From Planctomycetota bacterium (lineage in GTDB: Bacteria; Planctomycetota; MHYJ01; WSZJ01), in NCBI GenBank assembly GCA_038060895.1, contig JBBTCT010000001.1, forward strand, positions 192,001 through 256,000: 64,000 bases of DNA, read 5' to 3'. The first letter of the stretch is position 1. Each line of letters starts with the position of its first letter. Below are positions 5,259-12,698 of the stretch, one piece after another. The notes beneath the pieces were generated by a model. It ran no database searches. It was not told the origin of the DNA and worked only from the letters and a program-made list of their open reading frames with translations. The translations under genes were made by a program, and so were the position numbers.

Positions 5259-5342
5259 GGGATCCCGGATCCCCGGTCCCCCCCTGTCCCACCCGCGCCC
5301 GAAATGGTTCAATCTCGCCCCGACGTCTGCCGCACTAAATGG

Positions 5343-5420
5343 CGGGGTGTAGCGCAGCCTGGTTAGCGCGCCACGCTTGGGACGTGGAGGTCGGCGGTTC
5401 GAATCCGCCCACCCCGACCA
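5343..5420 (+). tRNA. tRNA-Pro(TGG)
   Basis: CGGGGTG/CACCCCG acceptor stem, anticodon arm CCACG-CTTGGGA-CGTGG, GGTTCGAATCC T-loop, encoded CCA. Confidence 0.97.
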
Positions 5421-5454
5421 TTTGCGGATCCTTCCGGCTCTCGAGGCGCACCCG

Positions 5455-5910
5455 ATGGGACTGACTCAGAAGATCGCCGACGAAATGAAGGTCGCGATGA
5501 AAGCGAAGGACCAGTCGCGGCTCGACGCCCTTCGCCTCATCAAGGCCGCCCTCATGCACAAGGAAGTCGCTTCCGGCGTCCACAAAGAGCTGACGGAGGC
5601 GGAGGAGATTTCGGTGGTCCAGGCGCTGGTGAAGCAACGGAAGGACTCGATCGAGCAGTTCACGAAGGGGGGGCGACCGGAGCTCGCGGCGAAAGAGGCT
5701 GCGGAGCTGAAAATCGCCGAGGCGTTCCTGCCGGCGGGACCTTCGGACACGGAGCTATCCGCCGCGATCGAAGCCGCGGTGACGGAAACTTCGGCGACCG
5801 GCCCGAAGGACATGGGCAAAGTGATGAAGGCGCTCAAGGACAAGTTCGCAGGCAAGGCGGTGGACGGCGGAGCGCTTTCCGCGAAGGTCAAGGCCCGGCT
5901 GGGCGGGTAG
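5455..5910 (+). CDS. GatB/YqeY domain protein
   Basis: MKVAMKAKDQSRLDALRLIKA...KQRKDSIEQF...KDMGKVM. Confidence 0.9.
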   Translation: MGLTQKIADEMKVAMKAKDQSRLDALRLIKAALMHKEVASGVHKELTEAEEISVVQALVKQRKDSIEQFTKGGRPELAAKEAAELKIAEAFLPAGPSDTELSAAIEAAVTETSATGPKDMGKVMKALKDKFAGKAVDGGALSAKVKARLGG

Positions 5911-5982
5911 AATCCCGCCTCCCGGGAAGATCCGTTGCACGCCCGTTGTTACAGGTCCATCCCCCATGAAAGCGAGCCATCG

Positions 5983-6987
5983 ATGAGCAGGGTGTTTCTG
6001 GCCGCCGGAATCGCACTCGCCCTCTGCCGCGCCGCTTCGGCCGGCGGCATCGAGTGGATCGACAACGATTACGACAAGGCCGTCGCGAAGGCGAAGGAGG
6101 CCGGCAAACTCGTCCTCGTGCACTGGCGCAAGGACGGCTGCCACTGGTGCACCGATCTCCAGGAGAAGACGCTCGCGACCGACGATGTCGCGAAGTTTCT
6201 CGGCGAGACCTGCGTCAGCGTGCGAATGGACCGCGCGAAATACGGCCAGCTCGCGGAGAAATTCCACGTCGATGCCACCCCCGACACCCAGTTCCACTCC
6301 AGCGACGGGCGCGTCGTCAAACGCATCGTCGGATTCCTCCCGGCGGAGCAGTTCCTGGCGGAAGCGCAATCGGCGCCGGAAGCGTGGAAGCGGATTCAGG
6401 AACTCGAGGCCGCCATCGCCAAAGACGACAAGGACGCCGCTTCGAAGCTCGACCTGGGCCGTCTCCTGGCCGCGGCCGGTGATCTCGACGCGGCGGACAG
6501 GCACCTGCGCGCCGCCGCGGGCCTGGACACGGACAACGCGAAGGGGCTGGCGCTGGAAGCCTGGTGGACTATGGCGGACTCACGGATGCGCGAGCCGCGT
6601 CCGGACGTAGGTCTGGCCAAGGAAGCGCTCGCGAAAGTGCAGGAGCTGGACCCGAAGAACGAAAAGGGACGGATGGACAATGCGGCGGTGCAGCTCGCGC
6701 GCATCGAGCTCAATGCGGCGCCGAAGCTTGCAAAGGCCTCGCTGGAGAAAATCATGGCGGACTACCCCGGCACCGACGGGGCGGCAGAAGCGATGTTCGT
6801 CCTCGCGGCCGATGTCCTCGTCGATATCGACCGCAACTTCGACGCCGGGGAAGCTATGCTGAAGAAGCTCGCGGCGGAGATGCCTGAGGATCCGTGGGCG
6901 AAGCGCGTCCCGGCCGCCCTGGAACAACTCGCCGTCATCCGCAAGGAATCCACGAAGGACATCAAGAAAGAGGGAGAAGAAAAATGA
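5983..6987 (+). CDS. Exported thioredoxin-fold (CHWC) + TPR protein
   Basis: Signal peptide, IEW..DYDKAVAKAKEAGKLVLVHW..DGCHWC, downstream cis-Pro-like ATP, TPR-like helices. Confidence 0.88.
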   Translation: MSRVFLAAGIALALCRAASAGGIEWIDNDYDKAVAKAKEAGKLVLVHWRKDGCHWCTDLQEKTLATDDVAKFLGETCVSVRMDRAKYGQLAEKFHVDATPDTQFHSSDGRVVKRIVGFLPAEQFLAEAQSAPEAWKRIQELEAAIAKDDKDAASKLDLGRLLAAAGDLDAADRHLRAAAGLDTDNAKGLALEAWWTMADSRMREPRPDVGLAKEALAKVQELDPKNEKGRMDNAAVQLARIELNAAPKLAKASLEKIMADYPGTDGAAEAMFVLAADVLVDIDRNFDAGEAMLKKLAAEMPEDPWAKRVPAALEQLAVIRKESTKDIKKEGEEK

Positions 6988-7919
6988 AGCGCCTCCAACT
7001 CGCCGCCGCTTTCCTTGCCGCCGCCGCGATCGCGCGAGCCGACGGCGTGGACTGGGTGACCGACTACTCCAAGGGCCTTGAGAAGGCGAAGGAGTCCGGG
7101 AAACTCGTACAGGTGCACTTCACGGCCGACTGGTGAAACGCCTGCAAAGTCATGGATACGGATACGTATTCCAACGCCGACATCGCGAAGTACCTGAACG
7201 AGACTTTCGTCAACATCCGGATCGACACCGACAAAGACCCGGACACCGCGAAGAAGTTCAAGGTCCGCGCCATCCCGGACACCCGCTTCCTCGACTCCGG
7301 CGGGAAAGAGCTTCTGCGGATCATCGGACATCGCGCGGAGTTCTTCGACCAGGTGAAGTCCCTGGGTGAAATCGCGGCGGTTGAGTTATCGGTGAAAAAC
7401 AACCCGAAGAACGTCCCGACGCTGATCGCCGCTTCCATCGTTTACCTGAAGCTGGGCCGCATTGATGAAGCCGGCGCGCTGCTGGAAACGGCGATCGACA
7501 ACGACCGGGACAACGCGAGCGGAAAGCGCGAAGAGCTTTTTTACCGCCTCGGCCTCGTGAACATGAAGGCCGGGAACGATGCGAAGGCGGAGGCGGCGTG
7601 GGCGGAGGTCGGGAAAATGGACCCTGAGAACAAGAAGGGGTACATCGACGACCTGCAGTTCGACCGGTGCCTGAAGCAGACGGACGAGGAGGACTACCAC
7701 GGGGCGGAGCGTTCGCTGGGCGACTTTCTGAAGCGGTATCCGGACAGCGAGCACGTGCCGGAAGCCCGCTACCTGCTCGGCATGTCGCAGTTCTTCATGG
7801 AGAAGCGGGAAGACGCGGTTTCGACATGGAAGGACCTGATCCGCGAGAAGCCTGACACGGACGCGGCGAAGAAAGCGGAGAAGGGTCTGAAGTTCGCGGA
7901 GAAGAAAACGAAGAAGTAG
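6984..7919 (+). CDS. Probable selenoprotein: exported thioredoxin-fold (UNAC) + TPR protein, UGA at 7134-7136
   Basis: Track ORFs 6894..7136 and 7152..7919 are in one frame separated only by TGA: HFTADW-U-NACKVM; ATGA-coupled to the Cys paralog; hairpin at 7154-7172. Confidence 0.85.
7154..7172 (+). promoter_or_regulatory. Candidate bacterial SECIS element
   Basis: GGATACG-GATA-CGTA(T)TCC hairpin starting 17 nt after the in-frame UGA; G-initiated apical loop. Confidence 0.7.
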
Positions 7920-7935
7920 AGCGGGCAGAATCCAG

Positions 7936-7969
7936 CGGGGCCGGCTCGTCGCCGGCCCCGTTTTGTTTT
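7936..7969 (+). terminator. Intrinsic terminator
   Basis: CGGGGCCGGC-TCGTC-GCCGGCCCCG followed by TTTTGTTTT. Confidence 0.85.
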
Positions 7970-7983
7970 GAGGGAGTGAGACG

Positions 7984-8532
7984 ATGCCCCGCCCCGCCGT
8001 CTTCCTGGACCGCGACGGAGTCCTCTGCGAGGACCGGACGGACTACGTGAAGTCGTGGTCGGAGTGGCGCTGGGTGCCAGGGGCGCTGGAGGGAGCGGCG
8101 GCGCTGGCGCGCGCCGGAAGGCTCCTGGTAGTGATCTCGAACCAGGCGTGCGTGGGCAAAGGAATTGTCGCGCGCGTGACGCTCGACGACATCCACGGCC
8201 GGATGAAGGACGACCTTGCGGCCGCGGGAGCGCCCCTGGCCGGGATTTACGTCTGCCCGCACACCGACGCCGACGCCTGCGCCTGCCGCAAGCCGAAACC
8301 GGGATTGCTCCTTGCTGCCGCCCGGGAACTCGACCTCGACCTCGCCGCGTCGGCGTTCATCGGCGACAACCTCCGCGACCGCGACGCCTCCACCGCCGCC
8401 GGAGTCGGCCGCTTCGTCCTCGCCCTTACGGGCCAGGGGGAGCGCTGGGCGGCGGAGGGGGCGGCGCAGGGGATTCCGCTCGAGACGGCGCCGGACCTGG
8501 TGGCGGCGGCGAGGGTGATCCTGGCGCCTTAG
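7984..8532 (+). CDS. gmhB: D-glycero-D-manno-heptose 1,7-bisphosphate phosphatase (HAD IIIA)
   Basis: FLDRDGVL, SNQ, CPH...CACRKPKPG, FIGD. Confidence 0.85.
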   Translation: MPRPAVFLDRDGVLCEDRTDYVKSWSEWRWVPGALEGAAALARAGRLLVVISNQACVGKGIVARVTLDDIHGRMKDDLAAAGAPLAGIYVCPHTDADACACRKPKPGLLLAAARELDLDLAASAFIGDNLRDRDASTAAGVGRFVLALTGQGERWAAEGAAQGIPLETAPDLVAAARVILAP

Positions 8533-11663: not shown

Positions 11664-12587
11664 CTACTTCGGGTCCTTCTCCGACTTCAGCTTCTTCAGG
11701 GTCTTCTCCTTCGCGTCGAAAAACCCTTTCGCCTGCGGGTTGTCCCCGAACATCGCCTTCAGCCCGTTCAGCGCAGCCTCGAAACCCGCCGCGTCTTTCT
11801 CCTTCTCCGAGTAGTTCAGGATCGCCATGTAAAACGTCTGCCCGACTTCCTTGTCCGTCGGCGCACGCTTCGCCTTCAGCATCTCCATGAACTTCTTCGC
11901 GGTCGCCGCCTCCTGCTCGTCCAGAATCTGCTGGACCTCGGCGTTCGCCAGCGCGCCGTTCAGCCGCGGCTCCTGCTCCGCCGACGGCTTCGGAAGATCC
12001 TTCAGCTTCTTCTTCGCCTCGTCCGCCTTGATGGCGCCCGTCTCCAGCTTCCCGATCAGCACCTCCAGCGCAGCGGCTTTGTCCCCGCCTTCCGCCTTCT
12101 TCACCATCGCAATGAATGACTCGGCCTTTTTCAGTGCTTCCGAGAACGTGTCCACCGTGTACGGCCGATCGAACTTCGAGATCACTTCCCCCGCCGAGTC
12201 CAGGTACGCCATGTACGGAAACCCGTCGCCGCCCTTCGCCTCGAACAGCTCCTGGTACTGGTCCTCTTCGACGTGCGACGTGATGTGCAGGAAAAGAACC
12301 ACCTTGGAAGCGAACGTCAGGAATTCTTCAGAGGAGAGCGTACCGCCCTCCAGGCTGTTGCACGGCCCTCAGGGGGCGTAGGAACGGGTGAAATACACGA
12401 GCATCGGCTTGCCGGATTTCTTCGCTTCCTCGCGAGCCTTGTCGTAGTCGAGGAGCCAGTGACCTTTTTCGATGAAGGGCTCTTTGAGCTTCTTGTCGCG
12501 CTTGTCTTCGAGGTCGCCTGCGGTGGCGCGGGCGCCGAGGAGGGCGACCAGCGCGGCCACGAGCGGCAGCAGTTTCAGGTTCGTCAC
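11664..12587 (-). CDS. Probable selenoprotein: exported thioredoxin-fold (UGPC) protein with helical C-terminus, UGA at 12369-12371
   Basis: Track ORFs 12369..12677 and 11664..12302 are in one frame: YFTRSYAP-U-GPCNSLEGGTLSSEEF...GFP; GTG start with GGAG SD; signal peptide. Confidence 0.83.
12333..12351 (-). promoter_or_regulatory. Candidate bacterial SECIS element
   Basis: GGAGGGCG-GTA-CGCTCTCC hairpin starting 17 nt after the in-frame UGA. Confidence 0.72.
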
Positions 12588-12698
12588 AAGCCTTCTCCGA
12601 CGGGGGAGGAAATGCCGGCCGGGCGGGGGCGTCTGGGCCCCCTGGAAGCCCGCATCGGCGCGTGGCATCCTAAACACGGAACGCCTATCGGATAATCC

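Follow-up and report, generated by a model that had tools for sequence, protein, structure and literature searches.

A thioredoxin-fold UxxC protein with a tetratricopeptide repeat tail, a probable selenoprotein of a Planctomycetota bacterium

Background

Among bacterial selenoproteins, the most frequent kind is formed by thioredoxin-fold proteins with a UxxC motif, in which U is selenocysteine (Sec). In the known members Sec takes the place of the first Cys of a CxxC motif, the selenocysteine insertion sequence (SECIS) lies in the coding region just past the UGA codon, and Cys homologues are abundant. Here we describe a gene that shares these features, gene B (6984..7919, plus strand), which was found in a stretch of 64,000 nucleotides from a Planctomycetota bacterium (assembly GCA_038060895.1, contig JBBTCT010000001.1, positions 192,001 to 256,000), hereafter called the window. 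Unlike the known proteins, gene B has a tetratricopeptide repeat (TPR) tail, a signal-peptide-like N-terminus and a tandem Cys paralogue, gene A. Judged from its sequence, we put the probability that gene B is a genuine selenoprotein gene at about 0.9.

Several described protein families resemble parts of gene B. CnoX/YbbN also consists of a thioredoxin fold followed by TPR, a resemblance of architecture only. This "chaperedoxin" is cytoplasmic and not known to contain Sec, and E. coli CnoX presumably has Ser at the first redox position, like some relatives of gene B. CnoX was found neither among the NCBIfam matches at E <= 0.01 nor among the best 60 of 596 matches in the Protein Data Bank (PDB), the presence of CnoX in these libraries being unverified. 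The best-matching thioredoxin subfamily is that of DsbD gamma and DsbH, which are periplasmic disulfide reductases. Unlike DsbD, gene B lacks the DsbD_TM domain (PF02683, Pfam), carries Sec instead of Cys, and scores 42.9 with the NCBIfam DsbD model against a cut-off of 330; it likewise differs from the DsbH family, with an NCBIfam DsbH score of 34.1 against a cut-off of 190. The C-terminal 80-130 residues are similar to the periplasmic TPR proteins CpoB/YbgF and BamD (tol_pal_ybgF, 56.2 bits), but the scores are under the curated cut-offs (90.1 and 81.4 bits) and those proteins have no thioredoxin domain. The family NF041199, Trx7/PDZ (seleno)protein, shares with gene B a Thioredoxin_7-type domain, Sec in the redox motif and a fused protein-binding domain; its motif is however CxxU and its partner PDZ, as listed in a table of a 2026 review (PMC13188914), and gene B, with 32.3 against 300 bits, is not a member. 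Further NCBIfam selenoprotein models also stayed below their cut-offs on gene B, namely TsoB (NF045694, 56.6 vs 805) and the VPGUxxT models NF041382 (21.1 vs 350) and NF041383 (18.8 vs 275).

The main text of the same review mentions neither a TPR-fused or planctomycete selenoprotein nor DUF255, PF13899 or PF03190. The BSepDB paper (PMC13326102) has no mention of TPR, Planctomycetes or thioredoxin, the deep-Sep paper (PMC12013277) none of TPR, Planctomycetes, thioredoxin or DsbD, and a 2016 survey (PMC5029168) none of Planctomycetes. Another 2016 paper (PMC4807772) reports two marine planctomycetes with selenoproteins. We found no paper pairing a selenoproteome with Planctomycetota, the one found that links selenocysteine and selenoproteins with DsbD and the periplasm concerns the mammalian ER, and supplements may list the gene B family. 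On this evidence, taken from the main texts of surveys, gene B would be an uncatalogued thioredoxin-fold UxxC selenoprotein, with no new mechanism involved.

Results

The frame 6984..7919 comprises 311 codons, ends with a TAG stop and contains a sole in-frame TGA at 7134-7136 (codon 51). The codon lies in the motif H-F-T-A-D-W-U-N-A-C-K, where U51 occupies the first redox position of the thioredoxin motif and the resolving Cys54 is encoded at 7143-7145. A preliminary description of the window had claimed that two open reading frames (ORFs) are joined here by one TGA at precisely this position, and both the frame and the motif are as it claimed. When translation table 11 is applied, the locus is split into the ORFs 6894..7136 and 7152..7919, the second of which encodes 255 amino acids (aa) from M59. 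Pfam searches with the full-length product showed that residues ~19-117 match Thioredox_DsbH (PF03190) and Thioredoxin_7 (PF13899) with 57.2 and 48.6 bits (gathering cut-off 27), as well as Thioredoxin and Thioredoxin_2, the matches to the first two families lying at 19-104; PF13098 was also passed (39.3 bits, cut-off 27). The predicted thioredoxin-like domain (7038..7334) includes P98, which we take to be the usual cis-Pro position. Residues ~126-300 (7359..7883) are spanned by several Pfam TPR families, and the C-terminal part of this region is CpoB/YbgF- and BamD-TPR-like. At the N-terminus (6984..7040), M-K-R is followed by an Ala/Leu-rich run of 14 hydrophobic residues and by A-R-A before D-G, an arrangement that is conserved in the orthologues. 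Read by eye, it looks like a Sec-type signal peptide (Sec here in the sense of secretion), with cleavage placed between A-R-A and D-G.

Gene A (5983..6987, plus strand) has a signal-peptide-like N-terminus, a thioredoxin-like domain with the motif G-C-H-W-C and a helical, TPR-like C-terminus. Its TGA stop (6985-6987) overlaps the ATG of gene B (6984-6986) in the sequence ATGA, and the two products align over their full length with 32% identity (E 1.7e-32 over residues 2-302). The overlap and the CHWC motif had been described before and were found again. The further claim that gene A has the layout of gene B is borne out for the thioredoxin part, in which the same Pfam families match, and for the full-length alignment; the TPR part of gene A is represented by a sub-threshold match to TPR_19.

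Contigs assembled from three sequencing runs (X1, X5 and X12) cover 7134-7136 without any difference, so that TGA, and not TGC or TGG, stands at the site in independent contigs. X1 is possibly the source sample, X5 belongs to another study and X12, from a third one, is a metatranscriptome library made by RNA-seq; the covering contigs are record 7 of X5 (7004-7154) and record 4 of X12 (7036-7218). This suggests that gene B is transcribed, and because an RNA library can contain DNA it does not more than suggest it. The X12 contig has a single difference, C>T at 7077, which falls on the first position of codon 32, would turn Leu into Phe and probably reflects variation between strains. The runs containing this stretch are labelled groundwater or aquifer metagenomes, and the genome to which the window belongs is itself metagenome-assembled (86.5% complete, 47 contigs).

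A match to gene B at E <= 1e-20 was obtained in 11 of the 12 genomes searched in the order. Within the genus, the orthologue of gene B contains one in-frame TGA in six of eight species (this genome, G000, and G005, G011, G010, G008 and G007), whereas those of G009 and G006 have no TGA and read W-C-G-P-C. As placed by script, all TGAs of the genus fall into one alignment column (W-U-G-A-C, W-U-G-P-C), and the column is kept across species down to 49% identity. Since the same column carries TGA in five other species and the codon recurs in contigs of two other studies, it is not the product of chance or error. The selA gene is above its cut-off in the Cys species G009 and G006, as it also is in G005 and G007; therefore, the Cys of G009 and G006 does not come from loss of the Sec trait.

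Searching the protein database returned 16 matches. In five homologues of 255-256 aa the first residue is the Met that follows the TGA, as it is in the 255-aa database call of the window itself, and four homologues of 311-318 aa are uninterrupted and have W-C-G-P-C at the U51 column. It had been foreseen that annotation would split the gene, and the public records do give the Sec forms as 255 aa; one such form is named "tetratricopeptide (TPR) repeat protein" and a Cys form "DUF255 domain-containing protein". In the comparison of gene B with its G005 orthologue, the differing codons comprise 14 synonymous and 8 nonsynonymous ones in codons 1-50, and 65 synonymous and 43 nonsynonymous ones in codons 52-311; the four other comparisons resemble this one. 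The DNA before and after the TGA evolves as protein-coding sequence, and in one frame. In the rest of the window TGA behaves as an ordinary stop codon. Gene A ends with it, and so do 54 of the 97 frames that run from stop to stop over 300 codons or more, a mechanical count that includes shadow frames; TGA is the commonest stop of the window.

Profile searches of the genome identified selA (541 bits against a cut-off of 268), selB (310.7 and 35.2 bits for its two parts, both matched; 344 bits for the frame) and selD (364 bits), the last with one in-frame TGA of its own (C-A-G-U-A). The tRNA-Sec scored 71.7 bits with Rfam (gathering score 47), and ARAGORN calls it SeC with the anticodon tca. The whole set, all over curated cut-offs, is therefore present in the genome, including the tRNA-Sec(UCA) whose absence would have spoken against the preliminary description. 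The selD gene lies at G000:C2:48628-49548 (minus strand), and a GGGUCC/GGACCU hairpin starts 14 nt after its UGA. The tRNA-Sec gene is located at C4:13533-13624; selA is on the same contig, ~11 kb away, and a small Thioredoxin_7 gene with the motif S-D-D-U-G-A-C (G000:C4:12960-13217, minus strand) is found ~300-600 nt from the tRNA-Sec gene.

Downstream of the TGA of gene B, a candidate SECIS hairpin extends from 7153 to 7173 and encodes M-D-T-D-T-Y. It is composed of the arm UGGAUACG (7153-7160), the loop GAUA (7161-7164) and the arm CGUAUUCCA (7165-7173), which form 8 pairs with one bulged U; folded in a window of 28 nt, it has -8.2 kcal/mol. The hairpin begins 17 nt after the UGA, and the spacing from UGA to loop is 24 nt. 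In the bacterial SECIS (bSECIS) model, as outlined in the 2026 review and the legend to its Fig. 2 (PMC13188914), the loop has 3-9 nt with a G at one of its first two positions, the stem 4-16 bp, the UGA-loop spacing is 16-37 nt and the minimum free energy <= -7.5 kcal/mol; the gene B hairpin lies within all of these published limits.

The same structure was observed in related genes. The loci L020-L061 contain 12 distinct Sec forms, every one of which folds in the same register with -7.7 to -15.3 kcal/mol, and the energies of the 12 Cys forms are 0 to -4.4 kcal/mol; this set left out L029, a spurious match, as well as gene A of G000 and of G005 (the hairpin energy of the G000 gene A is -3.0). 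Sec paralogues that encode other residues at this place, K-L-E-A-D-S-Y in gene A of G007 and R-M-G-A-E-T-L in G001, hold the stem by changed bases. In an alignment of 15 sequences, 87.5% of the cells pair, compared with 30-48% after shifting the 3' partner by 1-3 columns, and the covariation score of 0.198 (0.125 in shuffles) was matched by 3 of 500 shuffles. Of the 21 Sec forms collected, 15 went into a covariance model, R1; the distant group was set aside because its pairing is shifted by one column. R1 gives 65.6 bits for the gene B site and recovers five more sites in the genome (24.5-40.8 bits), each with a TGA in frame within the UxxC motif of a Thioredoxin_7 gene other than gene B.

The relatives are metagenome-assembled genomes labelled Planctomycetota, Planctomycetia or Brocadiia. 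Of 401 genomes sampled from the phylum, 60 had a match at E <= 1e-15. By hand count, 38 of the matches span at least 250 query residues, 18 with one TGA and 20 with none, and the TGA column was verified for 14 of these 18. W24, A35 and P98 are invariant in an alignment of 28 sequences and C54 is nearly so; in some members of the family Ser takes the first redox position (G-S-K-M-C, D-S-S-R-C). With 31 rows, a quick maximum-likelihood tree contains a B clade with SH-aLRT 100 (6 Sec, 2 Cys) and an A clade with SH-aLRT 99 (7 Cys, 1 Sec), and requires at least nine state changes. Within the B clade parsimony alone is compatible with two losses or two gains of Sec. As the hairpin is near-identical in the B genes of G007 and G000 and a partial remnant of it is found in G009 B, two Sec-to-Cys changes are favoured as the inference.

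The proposal that a Sec gene is paired here with a Cys paralogue is upheld for the window, and the tandem A paralogue is real in all eight species of the genus. A functional coupling of A and B that goes further than the overlap and the constant gene order is an inference. The combination is not fixed, since both A and B carry Sec in G007 (L026, at 666 and 1651) and in the metagenome contig L055 (at 1591 and 2566), with W-U-H-F-C or W-U-G-Y-C together with W-U-G-P-C or W-U-G-A-C.

Gene B is one of many such genes. Of the 23 Thioredoxin_7 matches of this genome, 18 carry a TGA in frame at the redox motif (UxxC in 15, U-V-P-U in two, C-E-S-U in one), among them the DsbD homologue and a second gene of the window. 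A hairpin follows each of the 18 TGAs with -8.6 to -16.1 kcal/mol, and the five Cys forms gave -3.0 to -9.4. With selD included, the genome has at least 19 candidate selenoprotein genes. Since the ~18 Thioredoxin_7 genes exceed the threshold of at least six genes used to define a selenoprotein-rich organism (PMC5029168), this organism would be selenoprotein-rich. A second candidate lies in the window itself, at 11664..12677 on the minus strand (TGA 12369-12371; Thioredoxin_7 41.6 bits; A-P-U-G-P-C). The N-terminus of its product resembles a signal peptide and the C-terminus is helical and rich in Lys and Glu; its post-UGA hairpin has -14.8 kcal/mol and its R1 score is 26.5 bits. The sole DsbD_TM match of the genome (113 bits) is in a 648-aa frame on contig G000:C14 (locus L089, 451..2397, plus strand) that is composed of an N-terminal domain, a membrane domain and a C-terminal Thioredoxin_7 domain with an in-frame TGA (F-S-U-T-N-C); this DsbD homologue appears to be a selenocysteine-containing DsbD. 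Each of the 12 genomes of the order has 11-25 Thioredoxin_7 matches, 236 in total, and among the 150 of these that were listed, 91 had one or two in-frame TGAs and 59 had none (hand count). Judging by these matches, the Thioredoxin_7 expansion is order-wide.

As to the other features around gene B, a Shine-Dalgarno-like GAGGGAG, read from the sequence, is located at 6970..6976 (plus strand), 7 nt before the ATG. An intrinsic-terminator-like hairpin with a T-run (7934..7972, plus strand; 12 pairs, 10 of them G-C) is found 15 nt past the stop. No sigma-70-like promoter was found in 5300..8100, and no Rfam family matched in 5900..8000 at E <= 1.

Discussion

The position of the TGA at the active site, its constancy between species, the hairpin and the Sec machinery together argue for gene B being a selenoprotein gene. 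Several points weigh against this conclusion or against what may be built on it. Selenoprotein identity is a prediction from sequence. The covariation is thin, with both-side changes in two of the eight hairpin pairs across the 15 sequences. The recoding test is moderately strong: when the 15 codons past the TGA were recoded synonymously with local codon usage, 179 of 5000 sequences (3.6%) folded as well as the native one. The sites found with R1 belong to paralogues and not to independent genes, and they are not independent evidence because the sequences come from relatives and R1 also captures the coding pattern TGA...TGC. Taken singly, the 67 nt past the UGA fold unremarkably (z = -0.12 vs dinucleotide shuffles), and such a single-sequence fold is uninformative for the hairpin. 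In the distant phylum set (9 Sec and 8 Cys/Ser rows in a 40-nt window, two spurious rows set aside), the energies of the Cys/Ser forms, -5.9 to -13.5, overlap those of the Sec forms, -8.8 to -14.5, and the distant Sec forms pair out of register by one column, which weakens the case for the hairpin. Export is deduced from the N-terminus as read by eye; the reductase role, the binding of clients by the TPR domain and the supply of electrons by DsbD are drawn from family resemblance alone; and the neighbours of the gene pair, YqeY upstream and a HAD phosphatase downstream, offer no functional hint.

With regard to function, we give even odds to the product being an exported thioredoxin-type selenoreductase whose TPR domain holds clients and which is reduced via DsbD. 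A selenoprotein with another job is an unlikely but still serious alternative: it could be a thiol oxidase or isomerase, or a thioreductase-chaperone of apocytochrome c, that is, a fusion of CcmG/ResA-like and CcmI/CycH-like parts. A search of the PDB with the family profile bears on both. The matches of the thioredoxin domain include protein disulfide isomerases, 2kuc "putative disulphide-isomerase" (E 4e-28) and 2ju5 "thioredoxin disulfide isomerase" (E 2.6e-16), besides DsbD gamma chains (E ~4e-15), and the C-terminus matches CpoB 6g5s (E 1e-19), YbgF 2xev and also BamD/YfiO. A cytochrome-related role could be seen in a weak Pfam match to TPR_CcmH_CycH (23.3 bits, cut-off 42), but no cytochrome c maturation gene is adjacent, and the best thioredoxin matches are to DsbD gamma and DsbH-type reductases. 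The Cys orthologues, moreover, carry W-C-G-P-C-K, which we take to be the classical thioredoxin motif of a reductant, and for this reason a reductant is favoured over an oxidase.

It is very improbable that the TGA is a true stop, which would leave a 50-residue peptide and a separate 255-residue TPR protein from M59, or a decaying pseudogene. Exactly these two ORFs are what table 11 yields, proteins of 255 aa do stand in public records and TGA is the commonest stop of the window; such a stop would, however, sever the thioredoxin fold at its active site in a column that is constant across species down to 49% identity. A true stop also fits poorly with the excess of synonymous changes in one frame on both sides of the codon, the uninterrupted Cys orthologues, the SECIS hairpin and the Sec machinery.

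Equally little credit can be given to the reading of UGA as Trp, Cys or Gly through a changed code or near-cognate decoding. TGA serves as the stop of gene A, 150 nt upstream, and of 54 of the 97 long frames, the UCA-anticodon tRNA was typed as tRNA-Sec by two programs, and the TGAs of the Thioredoxin_7 genes sit at redox-motif positions, each with a hairpin after it; in favour of such a reading, the sequence methods used do not distinguish which residue is inserted. An error of sequencing or assembly for TGC or TGG, conceivable in a metagenome-assembled genome, is the least probable explanation of all, as the X1, X5 and X12 contigs agree at 7134-7136 and five other species share the TGA column. 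Pseudogene, sequencing error and code change were accordingly rejected on the conservation of the TGA, the independent contigs and the normal TGA stops.

If gene B is a selenoprotein gene, its expression would follow the textbook pathway, in which SelB with Sec-tRNA(Sec) binds the hairpin and inserts Sec at the UGA to give a 311-residue product with W-U-N-A-C. Going by its N-terminus, this product would be exported via the Sec translocon and cleaved near A-R-A/D-G. The domain families and the W-C-G-P-C of the Cys forms suggest that U51 and C54 may act as a selenenylsulfide/selenol-thiol couple in a thioredoxin-type periplasmic reductant, while the C-terminal TPR domain may hold client envelope proteins. 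Electrons would come from the DsbD homologue of the genome, which itself has a TGA-bearing Thioredoxin_7 domain. Gene A would go back to an older duplication, as a Cys paralogue coupled in translation.

Conclusions

We tentatively propose, at somewhat less than even odds, a joint reading in which the thiol-redox network in the envelope of this order of groundwater Planctomycetota is mainly selenium-based. In such a network a Sec-containing DsbD may feed exported Thioredoxin_7 selenoproteins, twelve or more in each genome, the A/B pair may be a periplasmic, chaperedoxin-like, client-holding reductase, and Sec and Cys may have been swapped repeatedly between close species, including likely reversions from Sec to Cys, a change called rare in bacteria in the 2026 review (PMC13188914). 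If true, the lineage would be rich in selenoproteins and yet belong to none of the three phyla that the 2016 survey (PMC5029168) names. The redox enzyme is invisible in databases because gene calls cut the protein at its active site and it is listed as a 255-aa "TPR repeat" protein; the conserved hairpin provides a ready model for re-annotating the lineage. The close Sec/Cys orthologues, together with the paralogue pairs, are natural material for studying the benefit of selenium to a periplasmic thiol reductase. A more interesting lead than gene B alone is that Sec would be encoded by most of the Thioredoxin_7 genes in the lineage.

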